In this document: in pieces, positions 42,201-64,000 of the stretch
Position numbering within the stretch: the stretch's first letter is position 1
Layout of the letters: every line of letters begins with the position of its first letter
Assembly: GCA_964577595.1 (NCBI GenBank)
Contig: CAZNZK010000001.1
Location: 208,144-272,143, forward strand
DNA length: 64,000 bases
Direction: 5' to 3'
From: an uncultured Candidatus Saccharibacteria bacterium
GTDB lineage: Bacteria; Patescibacteriota; Minisyncoccia; Phycocordibacterales; JAKAEA01
Notes under the pieces: generated by a model
What the model was told of the DNA's origin: nothing
The model's input: only the letters and a program-made list of their open reading frames with translations
Databases searched by the model: none
Program-made: the position numbers and the translations under genes

Positions 42201-45200
42201 AATCCTACCAATCCTCCACCGTAAGCAAAACCTCCTGCGCCGCCACCGGCGCCGTTGCCGCCGTTGCCGCCCGACATTGTGGTTGTGGCGGTTGTGGTAC
42301 CGTCTCCACCTAAGGCACCGAAACTTCCCGTTCCACCAACCTGCCCTATAACTAAAATATTTCCCGTGGAAGAGGCGTTGCTAATAGTATCTCCGGTACC
42401 GCCAATATATCCAAAAAGACCGCCGACATATGTATAGGAACTGGCTGCGCCACCGGCACCACCCGCGCCGCCGTTGCCGCCCAAAGCTCCAACAGTTCCG
42501 TTAATCGCTGTACCACCGGTGCCACCCGTGCCGCCCGTCGCGTAAACATTGCTCGTTGAATAAACAGCATTAAATAAAAGATCATTGGTAGTATTGTTGT
42601 AGCCGGCGATACCTCCAACGTACACCGCCCCGGTTATACCACCACCACCGCCAGTACCGCCGGTGCCATTTCTACCTCCCAACCCACCAGCCGGACCGCC
42701 CGTGCCGCCCGTTCCACCCGTGCCACCGCCCGCGCCCAAAACCGCATTGATAGTTCCATTCTGGCTATTTGATGACAAAATATCTCCGTTGTCTTGACCG
42801 GCTAAACCTCCCATATATAGAGCACCACCGGTGCCACCCGTGCCGCCGGCACCGGCCGCACCACCGCTATGACCGTTGAGTCCTAATGTTCCATCACCAC
42901 CGTTTCCTCCTTGGCCAGCAGCAGCACCGGGTGTTCCATCTGCCGTCATACTGCCAACCACTATCACTGAAGAATTTATAATGACTCCCGGATTATCACC
43001 GGTAAGTCCTCCTATATATGTAGCGCCACCAACGCCGCCGTTGCCACCAGTGTTACCAGCACCTCCTGTGCCGCCAATAGCAGCACCGGAAGCTCCAGCC
43101 TTACCACCCGTGCCGCCAGCACCGGCCGTACCGCCATTAACTGAAATAGTAGTAACGGTGTACGTAACGCCACTAATGATACCCGTATTTGAACCGGTCA
43201 CCCCACCACCATACGCCGCGCCGCCGTTGCCGCCCGCACCACCAATGCCACCGGCACCACCGATAAATCCTGAGGTGCTTGTGGCATTTCCTCCGGCGCC
43301 ACCAGTACCACCATAACCTCCGAGGCCCCCAGTTGAATAAATTCCTCCCGTATTATTTGCCGTGCCTATTGTTGATCCAGCAACGCCGTTCCAAGCAACA
43401 ACACCACCAACATAGGTGGCCCCACCGTTGCCGCCAAGACCACCAACAACAGCGGCTTCGGATACTCCGTTGATACCCGTTCCGCTCGTGCCGCCATTTC
43501 CAGCATTACCGCCATAACCGCCGGTGCCACCGGTTGATGTAGCATTCCCCATCGCATAAGAATCAACACCCACCAACCCCAAGTTGTTTGCTATCAAACC
43601 ACCCGAGTAACTCGCGCCGCCCGTGCCGCCAGCACCGCCAATGTTGCCGGCACCACCGACAACTCCACCACCGGAGGAATTACCACCATTAGCGCCGGGA
43701 GCACCAGGAGCGCCAGTGCCGCCGGTTGAGCTTGCTGTCCCTAGTGCATATGAAAAATTTTGAACAATACCGTTGGCGCTGTTTTGCCCCAGCAAACCTC
43801 CGGCGTAGGCAGGGCCGCCAGCACGAGCAGTAATCAAAGCGCCAGTATCAAGCGCGCCGTTGGCACCGCCAGCCATACCAGTTGACCCACTACCACCAAG
43901 ACCGCCGGAACCAGGCGCGCCACCAGTACCACCGAGCGCGGAAACATTTCCTGTCGCATACGAATGATCAATAACGCCCGTGCTCAGCGCTACTAAACCC
44001 CCAGCGTAAGCGGTTCCGCCAAGACCACCGATCGCGCCGCCAGTGCCACCAGTGGCTCCAACGCCACCAGCACCGCCAGTGCCACCGTTTCCAGCATTGC
44101 CCGCTACTGATGTTACCGTCGCGGCGGCATAAGAATTTGCTTGAATAAAACCAGCTACGTTATTTCCCACCCCACCACCTGCATATGAAAACGCTCCCAG
44201 GCCTCCGGTGCCACCAGTGCCGCCGGCACCACCAAGAGCCCCACTGCCACCAATACCGCCGGCACCGCCGGTAGCTCCGTTGCCACCAGAACCAGCGGTA
44301 GCGGTTACGGAACCGGCAGAGATATATGAATTGGTAATTGTTGAAGAGTTGTATCCGGCAATACCTCCGCCATAAGCCGCGGCTCCGGCACCACCCGTAC
44401 CGCCCTGCACTCCGGAAGCGCCAACTTGACTCGCGCCTCCCGTAGAACCATTACCGGCTGCTCCGGCAGCTGCTCCGGGTTGGCCAGAAACTGAAAGAGC
44501 AATAACCGTGGTTGACGCGGTTGAGCTGGCAATAATAGTGGTGTTATATCCCACCAATCCACCAGCGTAAGCAATAGCACCAGTACCACCAGTACCGCCA
44601 GTGCCACCCGCCGCGGCAGTAGCAGCAATAGTTCCGGTAGTGGTGCCGGCCCCGCCACCCGCGCCACCTAAACCAGGAATACCTGAGGTTGACGTGACAT
44701 TTCCAATAAAATTATTTCCACCCTGGACGATGCCGGCACTATCTCCAATAAGCCCGCCGGCGTAAGATACGCCGGCAGTGCCGCCCGTTCCACCACTGCC
44801 ACCGACACCGCCGATAGAGTTGGTACCGCCAGCTCCGCCACTGCCACCATTGCCAGCATTGCCACCCTGACCACCGTTCGCAATTATGGATCCAGTTGAT
44901 GAGGCTGTTGTTACTGTGCCGGCAACAAAGTTTCCGATTACTCCTCCACTGAAGGCGTTGCCACCCGTGCCGCCGCCAAGACCACCCAGCCCGGCGCCGC
45001 CGGTAGTTGACGTTGCCGTTCCACCAGCTCCGCCATTACCACCAACGCCACCCGCGCCGCCGTTCGCGGTTATGGTGCCAATTGAATATGAACTTAGAAT
45101 ATCTCCGTTATTTTGATCACCGACAACTCCGCCAACATATGCAACACCGCCAGTTAAGCCGGCGCTACCAGCAACACCGGACGTGCTCGTCGTTCCCACA

Positions 45201-48200
45201 CCACCATTTGCTCCGGCACCACCAGCTCCGGCTGTGCCTGTGAGGTTCGCCAAAAAATAACTACTCGTAATAGTTGGCCCTGAGTTGTAACCGGTAATTC
45301 CGCCAGCGTAAATAATCGCGCCGATAATCGCCGTGCCGGCAGCACCAGGCGTGCCACCAGTGCCGCCAGGCCCCGCGCCGCCGACACCGGCAGCGCCACC
45401 CGCTCCGGCTATTCCGGAAATATTTCCCGTCGTATGATAGCTGTTCGTAATAATATTGGTATTATTGCCGGATATTCCTCCTATATATAGAACGCCAGCG
45501 GCGCCGCCCGTGCCGCCACCGACGCCAGCATAGCCGAGCAAGCTCGCCGCGCCCGTTCCTCCGGTGCCACCGGTGCCACCATTAGCCGAGAGTGCATTTT
45601 GAGAAAATGAGTTTTGAATGGTTCCCGTATTGCTTCCGACAAGCGCGCCCGCGTAAGTTGCTGTTCCGTTAGCGGAACCTCCCGTGCCTGAAGTGCCACC
45701 CGTGCCGTTTGCGGCGCCGGATGTGCCTTTAGCACCGCCAATTCCGCCCGTGCCACCCATGCCACCATTGCCGCCCGTCACCGTAACAAGCCCCGCAGTG
45801 GAATCAGCCATACTAATAAGTCCCGCGTTTAATCCCACGAGACCACCGGCATATGCAGCGCCACCAACGGCACCGTTCGCCGCATTGCCGCCATTGCCGC
45901 CGCTCGCCGCCGTACCACCCTGGCCGCCCGCGCCGCCATTGCTACCATTCTTACCAGCAGATCCTGTGGCCGTTACGGCACCGCTTGCATATACAGTACT
46001 TGTTGCCCCGGTGATAATTCCATCAGCACTATTTTGCGCTACTAAGCCTCCGGCATAAGCAATAGCTCCAGCACCACCAATGGCACCGGCGCCACCGCCT
46101 AGGGCAGTCGCTGTTGATGCGGCCGCACTGGTACTGGCCATGCCACCGGCAGATGCATTACCCGCAATGCCGGCAAGTGACTGCACCGTGCCGGTAGCGT
46201 ACGAACCGGTCTCAATAGTTCCTAAATTGTTTGCCACCAAGCCACCGGCAAATGAGTTGCCACCCGCGCCGCCAACAGCACCGTTGCCGCCTGCACCGCC
46301 AGTAGCAGCCACGTTGCTGTTACCACCCTGCCCGCCCGTACCGGCAATTCCCGCCACGCCGCCAGCGCCACCATAGGCCGTAACATTTCCAGTTGCCGCG
46401 GAAGCCATAATCGTGCCAGTGTTGAGCCAGCCAATCAAGCCGCCGACATAGCTAATGCCACCAGCACCGGGAATACCAACACTGCCTCCACCACCGCCTG
46501 TTCCCGTGCCGAAGTTCATACCACCATTGCCACCGTTACCACTGGCGCCGCCCGCGCCGCCGCTACCAATAACCGCAACCGTGCTCAACGCGTTCGTGAT
46601 ACTACCTTGTGCAGACCACCCAACCAGACCTCCAATATAAACGACGCCACCAGTGGCACCGGCATTCGTTGGCGTCGTGCCTCCCACACCGCCAGTGTTA
46701 GCAAAACCAGCCGGAGTATCACCGCCGTTACTCGCGTTTCCTTCAGTACCGCCCGCGCCGCCCGCGCCAGTTACTGTTCCAGAGATATTAATATTTGAAA
46801 TTGTTCCGGCGTTATAGGCGACCAGGCCGCCGACATAAATGTTGCTACCCGCGGTACCGGCAGAGTTGTTATTACCAGGAGTGCTTGTCGCCACGGCTGC
46901 GGCATTAGCGGTACTCAAGCCCGGCGTGCCTGTCGCCGAAATAAGTAAATTTGCCAGAGTGAGATTTTGAATGTTACTGCTGTTATATCCAAAAAGACCG
47001 GCGTAGGTTATGGAGCTTGAAGCAATAAATAAGTTGCTGACCGTAAATCCATTACCATTGAAATTTCCCGTGAAGCTTGTCGTGTTATTTCCTATCGGCA
47101 CAAAACCACTGCTTGAATTCCAGGATGAAGTCACGGTCGCGTCAACACTGCTGTTAAGCTGGTAAGAACTCGTCAGGTTGGTTTTGACCCCCTGCAAGCC
47201 ATAGACGTCATAAATTATATACGGATCATTCGTTGAGCCGATACCGGTGTACCTTCTAAACGTACCGGCATTGATGGCAAAATTATTGCCGACGGAAAAA
47301 TAGTTGTTGGCAGGATTCCCGACCGTGAGAGTAGCAAAGTAGGTGCCGGAGTTTTGAATAAAATTGTTTGTAATCGCCAGGTTGGCGTTCTGGTTGATGC
47401 TTCCGGCGAAGCCGTTTATGGAGAATGAACTGATAGTTGAAGAAGCATCAATTGTCACAATGGAGGAAGCGATTCCGGAGTTTCCATCAAAAATGACCGT
47501 AGTTGTGGTACCAGGCGCATTCACGGTGCTGGTGAAAGTGGCACCGGAGGAAGTCGCCCAGTGAGTGCCACCGACATCCGACCAAAGCCCCGTGCCATTA
47601 ACCCAATAAGCAGTAGCCGGAGGAGTCACCGGGTCAACGATGTAGTCAATGTCTATGTTTCCGGAAATTCGCAAATCAAAAAGGTCGGTCGGTGTTTGCA
47701 AGTCGGGCATCAGAATCCGATACTTTCCTTCCTGATTAATTTGAAATGTTGCGTGGAGCGCGTCGCCTTCCGTAGTACTTCCTTCGGCGTCAGTATATAC
47801 CGGGTACACGGTTATTGAACCCGTCTGGCTCGCATCGTCCGCTTTGGCATAGAGTGTGACGTCGTTTGTGTTGTTCAAAATTTGATCAAACGTGACCCGG
47901 ACAGATTGGCCGGAAGCGATGGTAGCGTAGTTTCCATCTTGCGCCTGCACGAGGCTATAAATATCACCGATCGGGTTAAGATTCGCGTCCAACTGCAAGG
48001 CTTTGGAAATGTAAATAATTTGAAATGTTTGAGTTGAAAGGTGCGGCACAATCCACTGAAGGTGATCAATGTACCCATTGCCATCTTCATCAAGCGCGGT
48101 AAATTGCATTGGTTGACCGCCATTGTTCGCCCAATTTATTTTAATTTGATTTTCTTGACCCACTTTAAAGAGTTCTGGAATAGTAATGGTGACCGGTACG

Positions 48201-48850
48201 TTAATCATAGGAGTGAGCGCTTCTTGTTCGGGCGTTGCTGAAATCGTCACCAGCTTTCCGTCGCTGGTTAATTGCTCAACAATAGTTGGAGTTGAGCTTA
48301 CTACATCAGCTGTTGAAGTTGCCGTAGATGTTGCGTCACTCGCAGAAGCCGAAATGCCTAATGGGTCGGTGGTGGTCGCTGATGAATCACCGCCACCAGT
48401 TGTTGTTGAAGTACCCGTAGGTGATGAAGTGTCTGGAGTTGAAGTTGCTACATCTGAGACGGGGAGAGTGACAGATTCGGACGTGGTCGCCATGGTTGTG
48501 GGGGGAGGCACATCTTCAACCGGTGTGGTATTTTGGCTGCCAGTATCACTAGTTGTCACGTTTGTACCCGTATCATCAGCGGTCGCATCGGCAGTCGGAG
48601 TAGGCGTGCTGAGACTACTACTATCTGCTGAGTCAGACGAAGTGTCGGGTGTGGTAACTGCCGGCGTTGCAGTCGTAGGATCAGGGGTAGCGGCAGGTGT
48701 CGCAGTGCTCGTATCAGTATCCGCTGTGGTATCGGTGCTAGGAGCAACCGCGTCATCAGCCAAGCTCCTGAGAGGGAAAAAACCGGCACAGAGAAAAATC
48801 ACAAGTATGACAAAAAATATCTTGATGGTGTGATTGAATCGTGATGACAT
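30299..48850 (-). CDS. Giant (6183-aa) secreted surface fibre protein with, in order: signal peptide, Thr/Ser/Asp-rich linker, N-terminal globular region, about 49 GLUG-motif/Gly-rich repeats, 23 FN3-like repeats, a roughly 110-aa domain, Gly22, and a C-terminal dockerin-like domain.
   Basis: Single uninterrupted ORF of 18,552 nt. Signal peptide MSSRFNHTIKIFFVILVIFLCAGFFPLRSLA. Recurrent Y[AVI]GG[LIV][VI]G.N.G.I.NSYA units separated by GGxGG tracts. Repeated about 90-aa PDAPTIGTAT...TYTFTVTATN units. Dockerin DFNHDGRVDAIDFSILL...DINHDNKVDSIDFSIML. Confidence 0.85.
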   Translation of the reverse strand: MSSRFNHTIKIFFVILVIFLCAGFFPLRSLADDAVAPSTDTTADTDTSTATPAATPDPTTATPAVTTPDTSSDSADSSSLSTPTPTADATADDTGTNVTTSDTGSQNTTPVEDVPPPTTMATTSESVTLPVSDVATSTPDTSSPTGTSTTTGGGDSSATTTDPLGISASASDATSTATSTADVVSSTPTIVEQLTSDGKLVTISATPEQEALTPMINVPVTITIPELFKVGQENQIKINWANNGGQPMQFTALDEDGNGYIDHLQWIVPHLSTQTFQIIYISKALQLDANLNPIGDIYSLVQAQDGNYATIASGQSVRVTFDQILNNTNDVTLYAKADDASQTGSITVYPVYTDAEGSTTEGDALHATFQINQEGKYRILMPDLQTPTDLFDLRISGNIDIDYIVDPVTPPATAYWVNGTGLWSDVGGTHWATSSGATFTSTVNAPGTTTTVIFDGNSGIASSIVTIDASSTISSFSINGFAGSINQNANLAITNNFIQNSGTYFATLTVGNPANNYFSVGNNFAINAGTFRRYTGIGSTNDPYIIYDVYGLQGVKTNLTSSYQLNSSVDATVTSSWNSSSGFVPIGNNTTSFTGNFNGNGFTVSNLFIASSSITYAGLFGYNSSNIQNLTLANLLISATGTPGLSTANAAAVATSTPGNNNSAGTAGSNIYVGGLVAYNAGTISNINISGTVTGAGGAGGTEGNASNGGDTPAGFANTGGVGGTTPTNAGATGGVVYIGGLVGWSAQGSITNALSTVAVIGSGGAGGASGNGGNGGMNFGTGTGGGGGSVGIPGAGGISYVGGLIGWLNTGTIMASAATGNVTAYGGAGGVAGIAGTGGQGGNSNVAATGGAGGNGAVGGAGGNSFAGGLVANNLGTIETGSYATGTVQSLAGIAGNASAGGMASTSAAASTATALGGGAGAIGGAGAIAYAGGLVAQNSADGIITGATSTVYASGAVTATGSAGKNGSNGGAGGQGGTAASGGNGGNAANGAVGGAAYAGGLVGLNAGLISMADSTAGLVTVTGGNGGMGGTGGIGGAKGTSGAANGTGGTSGTGGSANGTATYAGALVGSNTGTIQNSFSQNALSANGGTGGTGGTGAASLLGYAGVGGGTGGAAGVLYIGGISGNNTNIITNSYHTTGNISGIAGAGGAAGVGGAGPGGTGGTPGAAGTAIIGAIIYAGGITGYNSGPTITSSYFLANLTGTAGAGGAGANGGVGTTSTSGVAGSAGLTGGVAYVGGVVGDQNNGDILSSYSIGTITANGGAGGVGGNGGAGGTATSTTGGAGLGGLGGGTGGNAFSGGVIGNFVAGTVTTASSTGSIIANGGQGGNAGNGGSGGAGGTNSIGGVGGSGGTGGTAGVSYAGGLIGDSAGIVQGGNNFIGNVTSTSGIPGLGGAGGGAGTTTGTIAATAAAGGTGGTGGTGAIAYAGGLVGYNTTIIASSTASTTVIALSVSGQPGAAAGAAGNGSTGGASQVGASGVQGGTGGAGAAAYGGGIAGYNSSTITNSYISAGSVTATAGSGGNGATGGAGGIGGSGALGGAGGTGGTGGLGAFSYAGGGVGNNVAGFIQANSYAAATVTSVAGNAGNGGTGGAGGVGATGGTGGAIGGLGGTAYAGGLVALSTGVIDHSYATGNVSALGGTGGAPGSGGLGGSGSTGMAGGANGALDTGALITARAGGPAYAGGLLGQNSANGIVQNFSYALGTASSTGGTGAPGAPGANGGNSSGGGVVGGAGNIGGAGGTGGASYSGGLIANNLGLVGVDSYAMGNATSTGGTGGYGGNAGNGGTSGTGINGVSEAAVVGGLGGNGGATYVGGVVAWNGVAGSTIGTANNTGGIYSTGGLGGYGGTGGAGGNATSTSGFIGGAGGIGGAGGNGGAAYGGGVTGSNTGIISGVTYTVTTISVNGGTAGAGGTGGKAGASGAAIGGTGGAGNTGGNGGVGGATYIGGLTGDNPGVIINSSVIVVGSMTADGTPGAAAGQGGNGGDGTLGLNGHSGGAAGAGGTGGTGGALYMGGLAGQDNGDILSSNSQNGTINAVLGAGGGTGGTGGTGGPAGGLGGRNGTGGTGGGGGITGAVYVGGIAGYNNTTNDLLFNAVYSTSNVYATGGTGGTGGTAINGTVGALGGNGGAGGAGGAASSYTYVGGLFGYIGGTGDTISNASSTGNILVIGQVGGTGSFGALGGDGTTTATTTMSGGNGGNGAGGGAGGFAYGGGLVGFTNTNIFISNAYATGTVSISAGNAGIGGNGGKGGLGANNPGGNGGTGIAGGLGGTVYVGGLVGFVTSGEIDSSYSTGAVTGTSGNGGNSGSGGIGGAGNGQFIGGIGGNGVAGNNGGVNYTGGLIGSNSGTLQYDYHILGMVTANVGSGGIGGAGGNAGASGAFLSASTTAAGGAGFLGGTGGAVNIGGLVGINTGAGAIINNSYAMANASTTGGIGGQGGIGGNAGDGSAGVNQTGGIGGVGGAGGPGASGVGPPATAVQAGGLVGQNITGTISNSYAVSGTVTATGGAGGASVQGGTGGIGTGTGLSGLAGAGGAGGAGGSVYAGGLVGYSTGVVNGSYSETTLNIAGGSGQNGSNGISGVANRGAAGSNAGAGGASGIVYAGGLAGYTVADVVASWTSVDPISGAGNIYINTGGTGNAGNAGNGGSAVVSGGVGGVGGTTAAVGGATNGAIVGGLLGYSSATVSSSYSQSLTITGVEQTGGIGGNGGNGGAGAGSSVGGVGLIGGNGGNSGTLEFGGLIGNDLGVIQQSSYSLVTIFMTGGNGGLGGNGGAGGTSGTTTSSGTAAAGFPGGIGGAGGVVFGGGLVGTISGAALTIQVVNSYATGTVSIVGGNGGNGGTGGNGGSGFYGTTGHVGSTGALGGVAGVGGEADAGGLVGFSSFAAGTGNFLNDYALGNVSALGGNAGTAGSSGSAGLSTTTVTGVSGPAAVAAAVGGNAYAGGLIGNNRFTTGINNFINSFAIGFASSTGGIGSIGNVGGNAASSTGSSLGGNGGVGGNGGAGGEADAGGLVGYSSVTSGTGNYQNSAATSTTNIVSAKGGQGGQGGSAGYSGAGAGAFAGGGTLAGGTSGAGGNAYAGGLIGQTSASANTDLSIIGSHSTENVVATGGSSGNGVTGVIGGLGGSLNKGGTGGTGGTSSTGGTSYAGGLIGSNAGIIENTSYATGNATSTSGTAGTAGVGGTGGATGGALSGGTAASGGVGGVGGNAGVAYAGGLVANNAANGVIISSYAAGSVTAIGNNGAAGGNGGTGGDGSLGVGGHAGGLGGNGGASGAGGAAYVGGLIGNNIDTTNTTLTSYAIGQTVTGIAGNGGTGGTGGTGGAAGSVGIGGGGGTGGSAATNAVGGALYIGGFVGYNDGFIEINSYSTNNATGTAGTGGTGGVGGNGVSGFVGTVGVGGQGGVGGTGGAAGTAGIVYGGGFAGENFTGMIIKDSYALGTVTATAGAGGAGGAGGTGGIGTTTAASASNGSNGGQAGGRTAGTNGGITYAGGFTGYNLGTLYTTYAIGAVNANGSTGGAGGAGGIGGVGGNGGATGAGGTGGAEGATAAAGNGGAAYAGGLVGYNYTAGIIQYSWSAGNVTIVGGNGGAAGLAGVAGTGGNGGTGGGGIGGTGGGVVTEGNGGTGGFSYGGGLVGGNISTGSISTSYASGNVKVIGGNGIVGATGGIGGNGGVGGSGATGNGGPATNGSNGGNGGAGGDVYAGGLIGTNTGTITNAYALGTASSTAGLAAKGGNGGQGGAGGAKGGGSTLGTAGAGLNGGTGGNGGNAYIGGLMGSNTATVTNAYSIGAPSGTSTLAALGGAGGATGTGSGAGGTGSAGANGTTVGVRNVGGMTGSAGGTYVSDYWDTDTSGKLHNNGLGTGAVDPSGMNSESNNSMMLLATYSNWDFATPIWDIVPSSTYAYLDYQTVSGSPTNVVAVGGNGQATITFTAPTNLGGSAITYYTVTSSSLADVSHTITGSNSPITIYGLTNGVLYTFTVTATNATGTSTASVTSNSVMPATVPDAPVITSATGGPGSATITFTTPANNGSTISYYTVTSNYGDTAIGGSSPITITNLTNGINYTFTVTATNSAGTSTMSNTSGSVMPATTPDAPVITSATGGPGSATITFTTPANNGSTISYYTVTSNYGDTAYGGSSPITIINLTNGVNYTFTVTATNGVGTSTMSNTSGSVMPAIAPDAPVITSATGGPGTATITFTTPANNGSAISYYTVTSSSLGDTPHTMSGGASPITIGGLINGATYTFSVTATNSVGTSTASGSSLSVMPATVPDQPIIISAVRNDDGATITFSYPNSNGSTISYYTVTSNSTSDVPHTMSGGTSPITISGLTYGSTYTFTVTATNGVGTSTPSLSSLPITPATAPDAPIIGTATEAPGEAIVTFTAPVNDGYSTITSYTVTSTDGLHSITGGASPIVITGLTNGLTYYFTVTATNSIGTSSASLSSNSVTPISIPDAPTIGTATEAPGEATISFSGPVNYGGSTISYYTVTSNDGHSATGGSSPITVTGLTNGVVYTFTVTATNAVGTSTSSGTSNSVMPATSPDAPTIGTATQSPGEATVTFTAPANNGSTISYYTVTSNSMTDVPHTATGGTSPITITGLTNGATYTFTVTATNAVGTSTSSGTSNSVTPISIPDAPTIGTATEAPGEATISFSGPVNYGGSTISYYTVTSSSLSDVPHTMMGGNSPITITGLTNGATYTFTVTATNAVGTSTSSGTSNSVMPAAAPDFPTNVSATAGTGQATVTFTAPNNNGSNITYYTVTSNSLTDVPHTATGGNSPITITGLTNGATYTFTVTATNGAGTSTPSGTSGSVVPATTPDAPTIGTATEAPGEATISFSRPVNYGGSTISYYTVTSNDGHSATGGSSPITVTGLTNGVVYTFTVTATNAVGTSTASSVSNSVTPTTVPDAPTIGPATGGNGQATISFSAPGNNGGSTITYYTVSSNIGGFTATGGSSPITITGLSNGTTYTFTVTATNSVGTSTSSSVSNSVTPATVPDAPSGVTAAGGNGQATISFSTLGNNGGATVASYTVTSNDGHTATGGSSPITITGLTNGTTYTFTVSASNAVGTSTASSVTNSVTPAMAPNAPTIGTATSGNGQATITFTAPGNNGGATVSYYTVSSNDGHTATGGSSPVTITGLTNGTTYTFTVTATNAAGTSTASSVSNSVTPATVPDAPTIGTATQSPGEATISFSGPVNYGGSTISYYTVTSNDGHSATGGSSPITVTGLTNGITYTFTVTATNGVGTSTVSAASNSVTPATVPDAPTIGPATAGNGQVTVAFTAPGNNGGASVSYYTVSSNDGHSATGGSSPITVTGLTNGTSYTFTVTASNSAGTSTASSASNSATPATVPNAPSIGTATSGNGQATITFSAPGNNGGATISYYTVTSNDGHSATGGSSPITVTGLTNGTTYTFTVTATNSVGTSTASATSNSVTSATIPDAPTIGSVTSGNGQVLVTFTAPGNNGGSVITTYTVTSNDGHTANGGSSPITVTGLTNGTAYTFTVTATNSAGTSTASSASGSVTPATVPNAPSVGTATGGNGQATITFSAPGNNGGSTISYYTVTSNDGHTATGGSSPITITGLTNGTTYTFTVTASNSAGTSTPSATTNSVTPATIPNAPTIGTATGGNGQATITFTAPGNTGGSAITTYTVSSNVGGFTATGGSSPITITGLTNGTTYTFTVTASNAVGTSTSSGTSNSVVPATVPDAPTSVTATSGNGNATVTFTPPSNTGGATVTSYTVTSNDGHTASGGASPITVTGLINGTTYTFTVTATNSVGTSTSSLSSNATTPATVPNAPTNVAAVTGDTSATVSWSAPSFNGGSTILYYTVTSNDGLHSAMSGSTVATVTGLTNGTPYTFTVSATNAEGTSTSSGTSNSITPASIPSAPQNLTATVADSSIGLSWSAPVSDGGSSIADYIVEYELATGGTWAIFDDGVGTTPATTVTSLSNDVAYNFRVIAKNAINQGTPSGVVSATPGSPAQVLIQSFPSLTTPNISTAIRITNEGQAQSEYTYNWCVTSSEVGSCGSADIFDGQNAKLIQPGQNFDTTLNSTVPNAGNYWFHLNVQFGSSFSTADQSFTATAPVSTNGGGGGGGGGGGGGGGGGGGGNLVVATPNLVNSKLTTSDFNHDGRVDAIDFSILLAFWGTKAPYKNSSVDINHDNKVDSIDFSIMLYEWTDTALALKD
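30929..37208 (-). repeat. Tandem array of 23 in-frame FN3-like repeats (about 270 nt each) within the giant gene.
   Basis: 23 successive units counted from the protein (PDAP/PNAP ... TYTFTVTATN ... SNSVTPATV). Several adjacent units are nearly identical at the amino-acid level. Confidence 0.8.
37410..47070 (-). repeat. About 49 degenerate GLUG-motif plus Gly-rich repeats (about 66 aa each) within the giant gene.
   Basis: Counted occurrences of the Y.GG[LIV].G.N.G.I core in the translation. Extreme GGN codon bias produces CCN-rich proline shadow ORFs on the opposite strand. Confidence 0.75.
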
Positions 48851-59254: not shown

Positions 59255-59276
59255 GCAGAAAAATCTGCTTATTTGA

Positions 59277-59438
59277 AGGCGAAAGCCAGCAACACGATAG
59301 TTAGAGCATTAAGAATCACCAATACCGCGACGAGTGTTGTTTTTGACCCGACCGCATTGGGATTGATTAATATAAAAACCGTGTAAATTATTGCAACAAT
59401 CGCTGCTCCCAAAAAGTTTCCTTTTATCATATATTTAT
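59277..59438 (-). CDS. Possible 53-aa two-TM membrane peptide (not in the ORF track).
   Basis: Manual translation gives MIKGNFLGAAIVAIIYTVFILINPNAVGSKTTLVAVLVILNALTIVLLAFAFK*. Purely hydrophobic, so it could be fortuitous. Confidence 0.3.
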
Positions 59439-59516: not shown

Positions 59517-60809
59517 ATGGAAGACACACTCTGGGATGTGGCTGTAGTTGGCGGCGGGCCGGCCGGCATGATGGCAGCTGGGCGGGCGGCGGAAAAAGGC
59601 GCTAAGGTCATTTTGCTGGAAAAAAATGAGTCCCTCGGAAAGAAACTGCTCATAACCGGAGGAGGGCGTTGCAATGTCACCAATGCCGAGGAGGATACGC
59701 GGAAACTTCTTGAGCAATTTAAGGATGCCGGAAAATTTCTTTTTTCGGCTTTTTCGCAATGGGGCGTACCAAATACGCTCCGCTTTTTTCACACCAGAGA
59801 TATGCCAACAAAAGTTGAAAAGGGATTGCGGGTTTTCCCCGTAACCAACCGCTCCCAGTCGGTATGGGATGTGCTGGTGGGGTATATTCGGAAAAATAAC
59901 GTGGTTATTCTTTCACAGTCTCCGGTTACCGGCATTGCCACCGAGAGCGCCGCAAACGAAAATGCCGGCACAAACGGCAAAAAAGTAATCGGTGTTATTT
60001 TAAAGAATAAAAAGGTAATCCGCGCCAACTCGGTGATTATTGCCACCGGGGGCACATCCCGCCCGGAAACGGGTTCCACCGGCGATGCCTATGCGTGGCT
60101 CAGAAAAATTGGCCACACCGTTATAGAGCCAGAGCCTTCTCTGGTGCCCCTTAAAGTTAAGGATGCCTGGGCAAAGCGCCTGGCGGGAGTAAGCTTAACC
60201 GATATAAAACTGACCCTTTTCCAAAATGACGTGAAGCAGGATACGAAAAAAGGCAAAATTCTCTTCACCCACATTGGCATAAGCGGCCCAACGATACTTA
60301 ATATGAGCAAGGATGTCGGTGAACTTTTGAAATATGGCGACGTAACCGTTTCGCTGGACATCCTCCCCACCCTTGACTATGGCCAGCTCAACCTCCGCCT
60401 GCAGGAGCTTTTCAAGGAGCACGACAAAAAGAAATTAAAAAATGCTCTCGGCGGTTTGGTGCCCTCGGCCATCATTGATATCGTCGTTGAGCTCTCCAGC
60501 ATCAACCCCGACGCCTCGTGCAATAGCGTCAGCCGCGACGAGCGCCTCCGGCTGGTGAAAGTATTAAAAGACATTCCCATTCACATTGACTCCCTCTTGG
60601 GAGTGGAGAAAGCCATCATAACCAGCGGCGGCGTCATCCTTGATGAAGTTGATTTTAAAACGATGCGCTCTCGCCTATTCCCCAACCTCTACCTCGTCGG
60701 CGATATTCTCAATATTGACCGCCCCTCCGGCGGCTATAGCCTGCAACTCTGCTGGACCACCGGCTTTGTGGCCGGAGAACATGCCGGGCCAACGCTAAAA
60801 CACTTATAA
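59517..60809 (+). CDS. HI0933/BaiN-family FAD-dependent oxidoreductase (aminoacetone-oxidase-like flavoprotein). True start at the internal Met MEDTLWDV.
   Basis: Dinucleotide-binding DVAVVGGGPAGMMAA. GGGRCNVTN motif diagnostic of the HI0933 family. Confidence 0.8.
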   Translation: MEDTLWDVAVVGGGPAGMMAAGRAAEKGAKVILLEKNESLGKKLLITGGGRCNVTNAEEDTRKLLEQFKDAGKFLFSAFSQWGVPNTLRFFHTRDMPTKVEKGLRVFPVTNRSQSVWDVLVGYIRKNNVVILSQSPVTGIATESAANENAGTNGKKVIGVILKNKKVIRANSVIIATGGTSRPETGSTGDAYAWLRKIGHTVIEPEPSLVPLKVKDAWAKRLAGVSLTDIKLTLFQNDVKQDTKKGKILFTHIGISGPTILNMSKDVGELLKYGDVTVSLDILPTLDYGQLNLRLQELFKEHDKKKLKNALGGLVPSAIIDIVVELSSINPDASCNSVSRDERLRLVKVLKDIPIHIDSLLGVEKAIITSGGVILDEVDFKTMRSRLFPNLYLVGDILNIDRPSGGYSLQLCWTTGFVAGEHAGPTLKHL

Positions 60810-61292
60810 AATTTTCTCTGGTTTTAAATTTTCCTGAAGCATCGTGAGTAACTTCTCAACCGGTCTACGATTAGGAGGTAAGTTGGTAGGCAAAAACCAT
60901 TGTGCCTCAATGATTTCTATATTGTCAATCTTGAAATCAAACGACGCAACAGACGAATAGAATACAGCCACAGTATCTCTCTTATGTTCCATTATGTTTT
61001 TATATTCTCCAATGTTCTTAATAGCGTCTAAACGTATACCCACTTCTTCAAAAACCTCTCGTCGAATAGCTGTTTCCCAACTTTCGTTTCTCTTAACTCC
61101 CCCGCCAGGAACAGTCCATAGTTTGTGAGCATAACCAAGCCGAGTCAATAAAAAATGCCCACGACATTCAATAAGACATTTCACTCCGCGTGTTTGTGGC
61201 CGAAAAATATACCAATAGAGTCTTCGAAAAGGATTAATGAGGGTATACCACGTGCGAATACAAATCTTGTACATAGTGTGAATATACCACAT
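60804..61292 (-). CDS. NUDIX hydrolase.
   Basis: Nudix box GGGVKRNESWETAIRREVFEEVGIRL. Confidence 0.8.
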   Translation of the reverse strand: MWYIHTMYKICIRTWYTLINPFRRLYWYIFRPQTRGVKCLIECRGHFLLTRLGYAHKLWTVPGGGVKRNESWETAIRREVFEEVGIRLDAIKNIGEYKNIMEHKRDTVAVFYSSVASFDFKIDNIEIIEAQWFLPTNLPPNRRPVEKLLTMLQENLKPEKIL

Positions 61293-61302
61293 CTAAATTT
61301 AC

Positions 61303-61340
61303 GGGCTGGCCGTGTTGGACGGTATCCGAACTATTTAAAG
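61303..61340. repeat. Intergenic repeat copy A (GGGCTGGCCGTGTTGGACGGTATCCGAACTATTTAAAG).
   Basis: Shares at least 30 of 34 nt with the copy at 62703..62740. Occupies the whole gap between one gene's stop and the next gene's start. Confidence 0.5.
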
Positions 61341-62038
61341 CCAACCTGAGCTGAAAATCTACGAATAGCACCGATTGCCATGCCTTGTTCAGGCGTCGCA
61401 ACAGTTTCCAAATTCTTCAGCATTTCATTGAGCGTTTTTAGAGAATTTACATTTTCGACAGCAGGAAGTTGTGGAAATAGGTCTTTTTTCATATTCACGT
61501 ATTCAGATACCAGAAATGGCATGAAATCTGGGTCTTTTCTCACAATTTTTTTGATTGCCACGAAACACATACAAATCACAAAACTCAGCTTATCACTAGG
61601 ATCCTTTTTAGTACGCTTCGGGTCATACACCATCTTCCCCTTTTGAATTGGCGTTTTTCCAAAGAGAACAATCGCCCCATCATCAACCCGAGAAGACGAC
61701 AACGGGCAGAAAAAATAATCCACCTGTAAAAGCCCGGCTGGTGTATCATAAATAACCAAGGAATAATTTCCACCAAGCGGGAAATTTTGCTGTGCCTCGT
61801 GGCATATCAGAATTGTTCCGAAACGCTTGTATATTTCAAACCGATTTTTAATGGACTCTTGAATTTCGTCATCTTTGAAAGTAACCCAGACATCGATGTC
61901 ACTCAACGCATCCCCATCGCCCCTAGCGAGAGAGCCGAACACGTGCCCCTCTAGAGCCTTATCGGTGAAGAAATTAGTAATTACAGAAAGCGTTTGCTCA
62001 CGCGTCTCAATCAGTTTTTTACTCAGTTCTGGTTTCAT
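61331..62038 (-). CDS. Nucleotidyltransferase-fold protein resembling ANT/Lnu-type antibiotic nucleotidyltransferases.
   Basis: GHVFGSLARGDGDALSDIDVWVTF, the minimal NTase motif hGS..xG.....SDhDh. Similar to LinB-type N-termini by eye. Confidence 0.6.
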   Translation of the reverse strand: MKPELSKKLIETREQTLSVITNFFTDKALEGHVFGSLARGDGDALSDIDVWVTFKDDEIQESIKNRFEIYKRFGTILICHEAQQNFPLGGNYSLVIYDTPAGLLQVDYFFCPLSSSRVDDGAIVLFGKTPIQKGKMVYDPKRTKKDPSDKLSFVICMCFVAIKKIVRKDPDFMPFLVSEYVNMKKDLFPQLPAVENVNSLKTLNEMLKNLETVATPEQGMAIGAIRRFSAQVGFK

Positions 62039-62050
62039 AAATTTTAATGT

Positions 62051-62680
62051 CTACACAATGCCCTGCCACACAATATTAATGTCATGCGTTTTCTGCCACT
62101 GTTCTTTCATTATGTTTCTTAATTCTTGGTGCTGAGGATACCCTCTATCAATCTCTCCAGCCATTAAATCGGCACACGTCTCATTGAGCAATACTGATAA
62201 CGCTTCTTTTTTGTCGTTATATTTTGCGTCGCCGAGTTTCTTTGCATCACCACCAAATTTATACCATGTATAAAAATGCCAAAGCTCGTGCATGGCTATT
62301 TGGTTAGCGTTCTTTTTTGTGGATACGTAAAAGAAGTTTTGATCGATATTGTATGGATATCTGCCGGTGATAGTCACAAAAGCAGTAATATTGTTTTCAA
62401 TTTTTACATCGAACACCTCTTCAGCCCTCTTTTCATATGCTTCGGCTACCGTGTCCCAATTACCCTGAAGTTGTGCCACTACCGCGCTCATCTCAATATT
62501 ATTGTCTTGAATATATTTTCTCACGAACTCCCGTACCTTTTCCTTGTTAGTAATATCAGACGTGAACGCCAAAAGCGCCTCATATGTTTTTGTCTTATTT
62601 GGTGAGTTTTGAGAACCTGCCCCTTTTGAAAGAAGACACTCTATATCCTTATTTTCGTCGTAGGTAAAATGGATTTTCAT
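62051..62680 (-). CDS. Hypothetical protein with an HExxH motif (possible zinc metallopeptidase-like). The track ORF used a TTG start inside the upstream repeat; the ATG start is at 62680.
   Basis: NANQIAMHELWHFYTWYKF contains HELWH. No further family assignment. Confidence 0.45.
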   Translation of the reverse strand: MKIHFTYDENKDIECLLSKGAGSQNSPNKTKTYEALLAFTSDITNKEKVREFVRKYIQDNNIEMSAVVAQLQGNWDTVAEAYEKRAEEVFDVKIENNITAFVTITGRYPYNIDQNFFYVSTKKNANQIAMHELWHFYTWYKFGGDAKKLGDAKYNDKKEALSVLLNETCADLMAGEIDRGYPQHQELRNIMKEQWQKTHDINIVWQGIV

Positions 62681-62702
62681 AAAATATACTGTGAAAAAGT
62701 GG

Positions 62703-62740
62703 GGGCTGGCCGCGTGGGACGGTATCCGAACTATTTTAAG
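62703..62740. repeat. Intergenic repeat copy B (GGGCTGGCCGCGTGGGACGGTATCCGAACTATTTTAAG).
   Basis: Near-identical to copy A, and in the same position relative to the gene start. Confidence 0.5.
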
Positions 62741-62751
62741 CAACGAATCCT

Positions 62752-63165
62752 CTATTTGAGCCCGCTTTTAATATATTCCAAGATCATTTCAACGTCTTTT
62801 AAATGCTTTGGTTTATTATACGCCTTCTTAAATTTTATAGTATCGTCAAGACTGGCGAATGGAATGTCTTTAATAATATCTGCCTGACCACGAAGTTCGG
62901 AAAATGTCGGATTGAAATCTTTGCAATTTACATCAAGATATAGTTCTATATTGTCTTTTTTTAAATAAACCTGCCCAATTTTTTCATACGTCCAGGGTAT
63001 TTGTTCCCAATGTTCATTTTTACTCTTTTCAAAAAGTTTTGGGGTAACAACGATATCTATGTCATTCGTCATTCGTAACCCCCGTGCGACAATGGGGCCG
63101 CTGCCGACGATCACATATTGATCTGGTGGAAAATTAAGTTTTTTTATTTCTTCAAAAATTTTCAT
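62752..63165 (-). CDS. Small nucleotidyltransferase-fold protein (hypothetical).
   Basis: YVIVGSGPIVARGLRMTNDIDIVV fits the GS...D.D NTase signature. Confidence 0.5.
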   Translation of the reverse strand: MKIFEEIKKLNFPPDQYVIVGSGPIVARGLRMTNDIDIVVTPKLFEKSKNEHWEQIPWTYEKIGQVYLKKDNIELYLDVNCKDFNPTFSELRGQADIIKDIPFASLDDTIKFKKAYNKPKHLKDVEMILEYIKSGLK

Positions 63166-63172
63166 TGTTGGT

Positions 63173-63200
63173 CGGCTGGCCGTGTGGTACGAAGTTGGAA
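63173..63200. repeat. Intergenic repeat copy C (degenerate: GGCTGGCCGTGTGGTACGAAGTTGGAAC).
   Basis: The first 12 nt are identical to copies A and B; the rest is about 60% identical. Same inter-gene position. Confidence 0.4.
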
Positions 63201-63202
63201 CT

Positions 63203-63985
63203 TTACTCGCCAGTGATGGGGAAAATCGCTCCAGACCCTTTCGTTAACTCTTCGACTATATTTTTGTTTCCGGCTATAAGATTAGTATTTTTATAGTCAT
63301 ATGAAGTACTTCCAATATTGGCCACAATACCACCCGCCTCCGAAACAAGCAGGCTTCCTGGGGCAAAATCATAATCTTTACCAAATGGATCAAAACATAT
63401 TCTGGCCTCTATCTTCCCGGTAGCAACTAAGACAAACTCGTAGCCTGAACTTATTGTCTGGAGCAGGAGTGATTTAGCTCTTACCTTATTTCGGATTTCC
63501 ACATTTTGTGGTTTAGTCTGATTAGTTTCCAACGCCACAACAGATTGATTTACTGGACGACTGCTTACACTAATCTTTTCTCCATTTTTAAAAGCACCAA
63601 CACCCTTTTCCGCGTGATACATGATGTCGTTTACAAAATCATAGATTGCTGAGAAAATCACTTGACCATCCTGAATCAAAGCCACCATGGTTGTGCAAAA
63701 TGGAGTACCTCGCACAAAATGCATCGTCCCGTCAATTGGATCAACGAGCCAGAGTTTCTTGGCATCACGACTTCCCCCAAACTCCTCACCAGCAAATTCA
63801 ATGGAGGGGTCTATTTTCTTAAATTCTTCAGCAAGATATGTTTCTACTTTACGATCAAGTTCCGTAACCACATTATGTGGAGACGAGTCTTTTTGAGCGG
63901 CTATTTCCACCTTTCCCCAAAAAGGCAGTGTAATGTCTCTCGTTGAACGAATAATGGGTAAAACTTTTTGAGCAATATTTTTCAT
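63203..63985 (-). CDS. Inositol monophosphatase/CysQ-family phosphatase.
   Basis: WLVDPIDGTMHFVRG (DPIDGT motif). WDhAAG-like region ...DFAPGSLLVSEAGG. Confidence 0.8.
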   Translation of the reverse strand: MKNIAQKVLPIIRSTRDITLPFWGKVEIAAQKDSSPHNVVTELDRKVETYLAEEFKKIDPSIEFAGEEFGGSRDAKKLWLVDPIDGTMHFVRGTPFCTTMVALIQDGQVIFSAIYDFVNDIMYHAEKGVGAFKNGEKISVSSRPVNQSVVALETNQTKPQNVEIRNKVRAKSLLLQTISSGYEFVLVATGKIEARICFDPFGKDYDFAPGSLLVSEAGGIVANIGSTSYDYKNTNLIAGNKNIVEELTKGSGAIFPITGE

Positions 63986-64000
63986 ATCTTTAGAATTTCA

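Follow-up and report, generated by a model that had tools for sequence, protein, structure and literature searches.

A 28-nt repeat between accessory genes of a Saccharibacteria genome as the probable attachment half-site of tRNA-targeting serine-recombinase elements

Near one end of a 64,000-nt stretch of the genome of an uncultured Candidatus Saccharibacteria bacterium (contig CAZNZK010000001.1, positions 208,144-272,143, assembly GCA_964577595.1; hereafter the window, whose coordinates are used throughout), five genes of low GC content are separated by copies of a short intergenic repeat. We consider it likely that this repeat is an attachment half-site of a large serine recombinase (LSR). 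It would represent the element-side (attP-type, P-arm) half of the attachment site of small integrative elements that encode an LSR and a G2P-type replication protein (Rep), a family that is widespread in the candidate phyla radiation (CPR/Patescibacteria) and whose members take the extreme 3' end of a tRNA gene as their insertion site. The five genes have the look of imported cargo, in units delimited by the P-arm of this element family, and the layout is that of a cassette-type array based on serine recombinases and tRNA genes, not that of an integron, a promoter or an operator. The window was compared with contig loci labeled L001-L039, of which L001 overlaps its end and L033 its start.

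A 28-nt repeat and its distribution

The repeat is a sharply bounded unit of 28 nt, which reads GTTCCAACNTCGTNCCANNCGGCCAGCN on the gene strand; a conserved flank of 6 nt, rich in A, stands ahead of it. An earlier reading made from the letters of the window alone (the sequence-only reading) had described an intergenic element of 30-40 nt that fills three of the four gaps in a five-gene block. The element and its placement hold, while the length resolves into the 28-nt unit and its flank, which do not form a uniform repeat. Three copies lie on the same strand, with no others in the 64-kb window, and they are not expected by chance: a 33-nt consensus has 2 exact matches in the window against 0 in shuffled sequence, and its 14-nt left part has 3 against 0.4. 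The copies are as follows.

63174-63201, minus strand: repeat copy 1, canonical form, GTTCCAACTTCGTACCACACGGCCAGCC; 1 nt past the stop codon of an inositol-monophosphatase (IMPase) gene and 8 nt ahead of the next ATG
62704-62731, minus strand: repeat copy 2, with a variant 5' half, GTTCGGATACCGTCCCACGCGGCCAGCC
61304-61331, minus strand: repeat copy 3, with a variant 5' half, GTTCGGATACCGTCCAACACGGCCAGCC; its first G completes the TAG stop codon of a nucleotidyltransferase gene

The first of these had been taken for a degenerate copy. It carries the canonical sequence of the family (pattern GTTCNNAYNTCGTNCCANNC..CAGC, with sites of the GTTCC..GGCCAGCC type), which is identical in several distant CPR genomes, including Saccharibacteria and Minisyncoccia; it is copies 2 and 3 that have a rarer 5' variant (GTTCGGATACC), and 5' variants of this kind recur as GTTCGGAT, GTTCGAAT and GTTCTAAT in L008 and L019. 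The first G of copy 2 also completes an in-frame TAG, 20 nt beyond the called stop of the gene for a 137-aa protein: at 62731-62754 on the minus strand, the TAG of that gene is followed exactly seven codons on by the second one. Because this second TAG is formed with the first G of the repeat, the DNA suggests that the 137-aa open reading frame (ORF) originally reached the repeat, as the nucleotidyltransferase gene does. A strongly diverged candidate fourth copy lies 28 nt upstream of the IMPase start (L001 7998-8025, about window 64014-64041). It has 17 of 28 matches and keeps GTTCGAGC at its 5' end, CAGCC at its 3' end and the A6 flank; we rate it as weak because it scores below 3 bits on a position weight matrix.

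Across the family, the gene-strand consensus of the unit is GTTCC[A/C]AC[N]TCGT[A/C]CCA[C/G][A/G]CGGCCAGC[C/T/A]. A degenerate pattern that fits all three window copies was scanned against one genome per species and matched 17 contigs, 8 of them from Patescibacteria/CPR and the remainder GC-rich chance matches; a stricter pattern matched 11 metagenome contigs, and viral contigs gave no match to two patterns of the element. The CPR groups that carry it are Minisyncoccia, Saccharibacteria, Berkelbacteria, Adlerbacteria and UBA6033. At position -6 of the flank, 50 of 57 copies have an A, and at position -1, 33 of 57 have a G; the flank often provides the stop codon of the upstream gene. A same-strand ORF ends within 150 nt upstream of 52 of the 58 distinct copies, and within 5 nt of 25 of those 52. 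The distance from the element to the next start varies between 3 and 150 nt, and repeat position 28 co-varies with the bases that follow. Within this genome the element is low-copy, with three copies in the window and two variants about 1.3-2.9 kb ahead of its start. It is thus not ubiquitous at many unrelated promoters, the pattern that the sequence-only reading had named as speaking against a cassette array.

Serine-recombinase elements at tRNA genes

At the other end of the window, an integrated element of about 5.9 kb (GC 0.42) occupies positions 909-4665 and reaches about 1.3 kb before the window start (L033 6623-12592). It encodes a 283-aa protein, a 76-aa protein, a Rep of the Phage_CRI/G2P type and an LSR, and it ends at a tRNA gene.

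3137-4618, plus strand: LSR (Pfam Resolvase, Recombinase and Zn_ribbon_recom); its 3' end overlaps tRNA-Val
2074-3126, plus strand: G2P/Phage_CRI-type rolling-circle replication protein, in the same integrated element as the LSR
4591-4665, minus strand: tRNA-Val(CAC), the integration target (attB-side arm), with the 3' end TACCGCCCAC

The LSR matches solved structures of the SPbeta integrase (E 1e-12) and is a candidate for the class of enzyme that serves the repeat family. The two variant repeats ahead of the window start, GTTCCAACTTCGAACCA[A/T]ACCGCCCACT, lie on the tRNA-Val strand (L033 6623-6650 and 5039-5066). Their 5' part equals the canonical sequence at 16 of 17 positions, and the 3' end of tRNA-Val matches their 3' part, TACCGCCCAC, exactly. 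The genome of the window has an element of the repeat family 5.87 kb away, on the tRNA strand. Past this distal repeat come a unit made up of a gene for a 491-aa secreted-looking protein and the second repeat, and then RhuM and TGT genes.

Homologues of the Rep were predicted to adjoin an LSR and a tRNA gene whose 3' end matches the repeat, and two further loci are consistent with this prediction. The Rep of the window is 73% identical to a Saccharibacteria Rep (L017) that has the same distance and orientation to a canonical repeat. On the source contig of the latter (L038), Rep is followed by an LSR that overlaps tRNA-Gln, and the canonical repeat lies 5.79 kb away; this boundary copy is identical to the canonical copy of the window, and its CAGC overlap with tRNA-Gln is shorter than predicted. 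In L039, Rep is followed by an LSR that overlaps tRNA-Lys, and a variant repeat, GTTCCAACTTCGTACCACAACCCGCACA, lies 5.55 kb away. Three independent elements therefore have an LSR at tRNA-Val, tRNA-Gln and tRNA-Lys, respectively, and a repeat 5.55-5.87 kb off. What is conserved among them is the repeat and a core of about 2.8 kb, made up of a small ORF, Rep and LSR and of a 28-nt palindrome that directly precedes Rep; the cargo in the middle varies. Since only the core and the repeat are conserved among the three, the repeat marks the distal end of the element, and this end is conserved. The intact elements are followed by one further unit with a repeat, and degenerate copies follow those of L038 and L033.

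Two structures within the element deserve mention. The palindrome (L033 9966-9993) is conserved in L038 and L039, and a non-coding stretch of 460 nt between the genes for the 283-aa protein and a 550-aa protein (L033 8376-8836, about window 449-909) contains long inverted repeats, CGTTCCGGCCGC...CCCGCAGCGGTTTC and GAAACCGCTGCGGG...GCGGCCGGAACC. The inverted repeats and the palindrome may be the single-strand and double-strand origins of a rolling-circle element.

Geometry of the proposed half-sites

The repeat and the tRNA have the same two end motifs, which stand 5 bp further apart in the repeat. In every pair, the tRNA stretch that begins with the T-loop (as GTTCGAAT or GTTCGAGT) and ends 2 nt beyond the discriminator measures 23 nt; in the repeat, the stretch from the T-loop-like start (GTTCCAAC; in the variant, GTTCGAAT) to the core shared at the 3' end measures 28 nt. 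In serine integrases, the zinc-ribbon motif is found at half-site positions 16-24 in attP and 5 bp nearer the center in attB (Rutherford et al. 2013, PMC3783163). At its 3' end the repeat is identical to its own tRNA over 10 nt for Val (TACCGCCCAC), 6 nt for Lys (CGCACA) and 4 nt for Gln (CAGC), and a pair of tRNA-Gln loci, L005 and L028, has a 6-nt identity block that continues into the shared downstream flank. These blocks intersect at repeat positions 24-27, at about which we infer the crossover to take place. With the crossover set at positions 25-26, GTTCCAAC falls at half-site positions 17-24 and the tRNA motif GTTCGAAT at 12-19. Two properties of attachment (att) sites are thus found: the zinc-ribbon motif lies 5 bp further out than in attB, and there is a short shared crossover core.

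The same pair of loci offers an empty and an occupied site. In L028, an intact tRNA-Gln is followed by conserved downstream sequence; in L005, the same downstream sequence follows GTTCGAACGTCGTTCAGGAGTCGCAGCA. When the two were compared by unbiased local alignment, a 5-nt gap opened right after the T-loop motif. Because of the 5-bp geometry and this pair, we read the repeat as the P arm and the 3' part of the tRNA as the B arm.

Cassette arrays in related genomes

A relaxed scan of the loci gave same-orientation arrays of 9-12 copies in L002/L024, 10 in L021, 9 in L019, 5 in L008 and 3-4 in L015. Their spacing is 300-2200 bp, typically with one small unrelated gene per unit and in a few units with antisense genes. 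The cassettes encode small enzymes that have no relation to one another, including ASCH, Asp/Glu racemase, SET, methyltransferase, SRPBCC, NUDIX, DJ-1/PfpI, HAD, YbjQ and AEP-like proteins, and no recombinase was found among the cassette proteins of the arrays examined. The sequence-only reading had likened the block to an integron-like cassette array. Its layout is supported by arrays of up to 12 copies, about one small gene per unit and units that recur; its integron mechanism is not. Variability of cassettes between relatives, which that reading had called for, is evident at a locus with a shared anchor gene.

59269-59430, minus strand: gene for a small membrane protein (MIKGNFLGAAIV...), conserved as an anchor on the downstream side of the array locus

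In L015 (Adlerbacteria) and L008 (UBA6033), the last repeat stands directly upstream of a homologue of this gene, and the window, L015 and L008 hold different cassettes beside the common anchor.

Homology between arrays tends to break at the repeat. In three of four pairs with a common cassette, it stops between repeat positions 20 and 28, in the 3' part or at its end: L009 and L018 have the upstream gene and the repeat in common and diverge exactly past nt 28, and L008 and L021 have the downstream cassette in common, with repeats identical only from position 20 on. In L008, one unit of gene and repeat is present twice within the array. The repeats are about 90-100% conserved, and the flanking cassette genes have diverged to about 70%. 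As a separate observation on the related Saccharibacteria loci L009 (1396-2370) and L018 (104-340), a segment with a kinase and a glyoxalase gene replaces the 5' part of a gene for a 91-aa membrane protein; the left junction falls exactly at the 3' end of the repeat and the right junction inside the gene, so that the event is precise on one side.

In L002, L015 and L028, the array lies downstream of a tRNA-Gln of the same strand, with 0.8-1.3 kb between the tRNA and the array start, and the pyrG-tRNA-Gln neighborhood of the L002 array is the one that holds the intact element in L038. Directly after tRNA-Gln we also noted a conserved element of about 190 nt (L028 1225-1420; L005 5455-5640, sense orientation; L015 620-790), which is absent from the window, L001 and L002. 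It re-uses the 5' acceptor strand, T-stem and 3' acceptor strand of tRNA-Gln, but a single hairpin replaces the D and anticodon arms, and about 110 nt are inserted past the T-loop (core GGATTCGAATGCCGGAGCG...GTGAGGCTGTGCCCAGAG). The L005 and L028 versions are 82% identical and have no Rfam match; the element could be a tRNA-like noncoding RNA or an insertion relic.

Genes of the block and its surroundings

The block at 60804-63985 has a GC content of 0.398, against 0.508 in the rest of the window, in agreement with the AT-richness that had been pointed out from the sequence alone. All five of its genes are on the minus strand.

63203-63985, minus strand: cassette gene 1, inositol-monophosphatase family, 260 aa (Pfam Inositol_P, E 1.2e-46)
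62752-63165, minus strand: cassette gene 2, 137-aa protein; no Pfam family, 61 homologues, the named ones mostly from CPR bacteria
62051-62680, minus strand: cassette gene 3a, HExxH protein, 209 aa; weak match to DUF5700 (putative Zn peptidase), E 1.9e-4, below the Pfam cutoff
61331-62038, minus strand: cassette gene 3b, nucleotidyltransferase-domain protein, 235 aa (Pfam NTP_transf_2/Polbeta, E 4e-6)
60804-61292, minus strand: NUDIX hydrolase gene, last unit (Pfam NUDIX, E 2e-15)

The NUDIX and IMPase labels of the sequence-only reading are upheld by these matches. Its ANT/Lnu-like nucleotidyltransferase is supported to the level of the nucleotidyltransferase domain, its HExxH protein has the weak DUF5700 match, and the 137-aa protein, for which it had predicted an NTase fold, has zero Pfam hits. 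Genes 3a and 3b occupy one unit, the 12-nt gap between them being the one gap of the four that is free of the repeat. No repeat follows the NUDIX gene, down to a position-weight-matrix score of 12, and the end of this gene overlaps a convergent HI0933-like gene. Homologues of the 137-aa protein in three other CPR genomes (long contigs L030-L032) have no flanking canonical repeat, and homologues of the SRPBCC cassette protein on the long contigs L034-L037 have no canonical repeats and, in L036, one degenerate copy. Cassette genes can thus occur independently of the repeat.

Upstream of the IMPase gene lies a GC-rich intergenic region of 580 nt (L001 7475-8053, about window 63986-64564) without an Rfam match or similarity to the 190-nt element. 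It contains two copies of a hairpin, GTGGCTCA(A/T)TTGGTGGAAATGAGCCAC, at L001 7483-7505 and 7802-7824, with none elsewhere in the window or the loci. The region might serve the array as a promoter or platform, or encode a noncoding RNA. Still further upstream of the array, beyond the window end (L001 4383-7472), are genes for an HTH_XRE regulator, for a protein of 562 aa whose Pfam matches to phosphoribosyltransferase and SLOG/LOG-like domains are weak and stay below threshold, and for one of 215 aa that has a MarR/IclR-like winged helix at its C-terminus, a context that looks like a defense island. Elsewhere in the window (30299-48850, minus strand), a single ORF of 6183 aa combines about 20 tandem domain repeats of about 267 nt (89 aa) at 31.2-37.1 kb with a long Gly-rich region of 9-nt periodicity at 37.4-47 kb, and its product resembles a giant surface protein.

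Discussion

In the mechanism that we propose, the host-side (attB-type) half-site would be the segment of the tRNA gene from the T-loop to the 3' end (GTTCGAAT.., 23 nt) and the repeat (GTTCCAAC.., 28 nt) its element-side counterpart, which integration would leave at the far boundary of the inserted DNA. The window block would then be a short array of the order IMPase, 137-aa protein, HExxH protein with nucleotidyltransferase, and NUDIX, in which a half-site just past the stop codon would close each of the first three units. Units might be added or removed singly by a recombinase that acts in trans, as an analogy with tycheposon islands and with composite islands of the staphylococcal cassette chromosome (SCC) suggests. 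The same kind of analogy suggests that the enzyme for the window array would be a tRNA-Gln-targeting relative and not the tRNA-Val-targeting LSR at 3137-4618. We favor mobilization of single units in trans over decay of whole elements because the units are compact, the repeats are conserved above the level of the cassette genes, and units are shared between arrays or duplicated within one; that single units are mobile, and how they accumulate, is what we infer from these sequence comparisons. A broader proposal is that CPR bacteria capture genes in an integron-like manner by means of an LSR: single-gene cassettes with an attP-type half-site of about 34 bp would be inserted and excised in trans at tRNA-linked loci by the recombinase of a rolling-circle element, and exchanged across Saccharibacteria, Minisyncoccia, Adlerbacteria and Berkelbacteria. 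We put this forward tentatively, as a possibility with the balance somewhat against it. The searchable literature on CPR integrons, cassette arrays and serine-recombinase elements gave no description of the element family or of the arrays.

Several observations weigh against a half-site identity of the repeat or a trans-acting LSR. Over 8 kb on the upstream and 12.7 kb on the downstream side of the window array, no LSR or other recombinase and no tRNA gene was found, the LSR of the window lies 57 kb from the array and belongs to a tRNA-Val-specific element, and the array loci contain no remnants of LSR or Rep. No second, inverted half-site was found in the 20-70 nt downstream of repeats or tRNAs, and dyad symmetry is missing; the att sites appear strongly asymmetric. 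The shared core of the tRNA-Gln element is only 4 nt long, and the conserved A at position -6 falls outside the expected half-site of about 25 bp, where the half-site model does not explain it. In L005 and L028, the cassettes lie beyond the native downstream flank of the tRNA and not between the tRNA and this flank, and one pair of units (L008_4767 and L019_4695) shares a cassette, yet its repeats differ from position 6 on. Finally, classical textbook LSRs are not known to re-use attL as attB, and serial build-up of single-gene units is for this reason not explained by textbook serine integrases.

One might instead regard the repeats as inert scars, left by serial insertions of whole elements at a tRNA gene whose cores were later deleted, with single-gene units that were never mobile. 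Such accretion, with scattered partial tRNAs, is seen in tycheposon islands (10.1101/2020.12.28.424599), degenerate copies do follow the intact elements in L038 and L033, and the arrays lack any recombinase. Scars of this origin should hardly leave compact units with intact ORFs and with stop codons that abut the repeat in 25 of 52 cases, nor repeats that are so much better conserved than the cassette genes; the same single-gene units recur across arrays, one of them being duplicated within an array, and there are no pseudogenized cores in the array loci. We consider this account unlikely. The co-occurrence of Rep and repeat in three genomes at a conserved distance raises the further idea that the repeat is a nick or termination site of the G2P-type Rep, replication from copy to copy freeing a single-stranded circle of one unit; the single precise junction between L009 and L018, with its imprecise other end, is reminiscent of one-ended rolling-circle events. 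The separate palindrome directly upstream of Rep is the likelier origin, however, and the 5-bp displacement and the sharing of sequence with the target tRNA fit a serine-integrase half-site and give no rationale for a Rep nick, which makes this idea very improbable.

An intercistronic signal at the RNA level (for 3'-end formation, processing or stability), or a promoter or operator shared at the DNA level, would agree with repeats that are co-oriented with most genes, directly follow stop codons and precede the next start by 3-50 nt, and some downstream genes have extended -10 boxes of their own and look leaderless. When the 28-nt unit and contexts of 57-65 nt were folded as DNA on each strand, no hairpin stood out from those of shuffles (z -1.0 to +0.2), and mutual information over 43 distinct copies reflected subfamily haplotypes only, with no Watson-Crick covariation. 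Because neither strand folds better than shuffles and covariation is lacking, the repeat is neither attC-like nor a structured RNA. Rfam 15 returned chance-level matches only for window 60500-64000 at E up to 10, and chance-level matches and tRNAs only for L001, L002, L005, L015 and L028 at E up to 1-5. A sigma-70 consensus scan placed no promoter at the repeats, no terminator was called there, and the repeats have neither dyad symmetry nor a fixed spacing to the gene start. The shared promoter or operator of the sequence-only reading also sits poorly with an element that abuts the upstream stop, adjoins antisense genes and precedes ordinary terminators, and a signal of either kind leaves the tRNA-matched 3' ends, the boundaries of LSR elements and the occupied/empty pair unexplained; we give it scarcely any probability. 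A true integron, with attC sites and a tyrosine recombinase outside the examined sequence, would account for one ORF per unit and a 3' recombination site that overlaps the stop codon, and a compact, co-oriented and variable array of single ORFs is indeed present. The attC-like bulged hairpins and IntI-like integrase that the sequence-only reading had proposed to look for did not appear: the repeat forms no imperfect inverted repeat able to fold into a hairpin and has 28 nt against 55-141 nt for attC. The Pfam lists for about 33 kb of this genome (8 kb on the upstream and 12.7 kb on the downstream side of the array, and window 1-13.1 kb) contain no IntI-type or Phage_integrase-type protein, an attI/Pc platform was likewise not found, and the annotated neighborhoods of the window array and of the other examined loci have no tyrosine recombinase. 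The chance of a true integron is in our estimate close to nil.

Other classes of repeat were considered and rejected. A plain tRNA 3' fragment would be colinear with the T-arm and acceptor, which the repeat is not, and the tRNA-Gln of L002, L015 and L028 differ; this idea was later refined to that of a tRNA-like arm with 5 additional bp. Inspection showed no dyad symmetry and no likeness to dif consensus sequences, as a dif/Xer-type site would have. Clustered regularly interspaced short palindromic repeats (CRISPR), DNA-uptake sequences and repetitive extragenic palindromic sequences or bacterial interspersed mosaic elements (REP/BIME) were ruled out by copy number, spacing and the lack of a palindrome. 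In one frame, the variant copies of the window differ at two positions that are both synonymous, as a readthrough peptide would require; this reading was dismissed because the stop codon ahead of copy 1 is in another frame than the repeat and because non-synonymous changes occur in other variants.

CPR bacteria have tiny genomes and few recognized mobile elements, and the repeat provides a sequence handle on one route by which they acquire accessory genes. This handle includes a serine-recombinase/rolling-circle element of about 5.7 kb that targets tRNA genes, as well as arrays of genes for small enzymes, whose content differs between relatives at a fixed locus. For annotation, the repeat is a searchable 28-nt signature that accounts for spurious ORFs and peptides translated from it, and the five low-GC genes of the window can be flagged as horizontally acquired cargo. 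If single units are mobile, they would represent a second, mechanistically independent solution to the problem that integrons solve, and a natural serine integrase with a strongly asymmetric site and a tRNA host arm would be relevant to integrase engineering.

The proposed half-sites resemble the att sites of known LSRs (A118/LI integrase, SPbeta, phiC31 and Bxb1), in which a distal motif of about 8-9 bp and an inner region lead to a short shared crossover core. There too, the distal motif stands 5 bp further out in the element-side than in the host-side arm (PMC3783163), and the LSR gene lies at the opposite end of the inserted DNA, adjoining the target. Unlike those sites, the host arm here is the T-loop-to-3'-end part of a tRNA gene, there is no recognizable inverted second arm, an A-rich flank extends past the expected half-site, and direct-repeat arrays of up to 12 copies occur without a neighboring recombinase. 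With integron arrays (IntI/attC) they have in common mostly co-oriented single-ORF units, a site at the 3' end of the unit that often gives the stop codon, array-specific homogenization of the site, and diverse small accessory enzymes as cargo. They differ in that no attC hairpin, tyrosine integrase or attI/Pc platform was found, that the site is 28-34 nt long and conserved in sequence and not in structure, and that the locus is linked to a tRNA gene.

SCC and SCCmec elements, with their CcrAB or CcrC recombinases, offer a precedent for LSR-driven insertion at the 3' end of a conserved gene and for mobilization in trans. Composite SCC islands contain tandem elements together with pseudo-elements that lack a recombinase, bounded by direct repeats of the integration site. 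In SCC, however, the target is rlmH and not a tRNA gene, the units span 3-60 kb and are not single genes, and the recombinases belong to a different subfamily. REP/BIME and CRISPR repeats are also short (about 28 nt), conserved and intergenic, and stand after stop codons; by contrast, the repeats described here are non-palindromic and few per genome, their 'spacers' are whole genes, and no RAYT or cas genes were seen with them.

Together with the SCC composite islands, the closest described parallel is that of the tycheposons of Prochlorococcus, in which successive tRNA integrations push older material inward and partial tRNAs are scattered in the island (Hackl et al., 10.1101/2020.12.28.424599); a minority of tycheposons use an LSR (10.1101/2020.12.28.424599). 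Both systems combine a small integration module, a replication module and variable cargo at the 3' end of specific tRNA genes, and in both, islands built by repeated integrations keep att-derived repeats. The elements studied here differ in their CPR host, in a G2P/Phage_CRI Rep in place of a primase/helicase, in attP-type arms that are not plain partial tRNAs, and in their regular one-gene units. Since they nevertheless bring together an integrase, a replication gene and cargo at a tRNA 3' end with att repeats, we regard them as tycheposon-like in the sense of a functional analogy and not of family membership.

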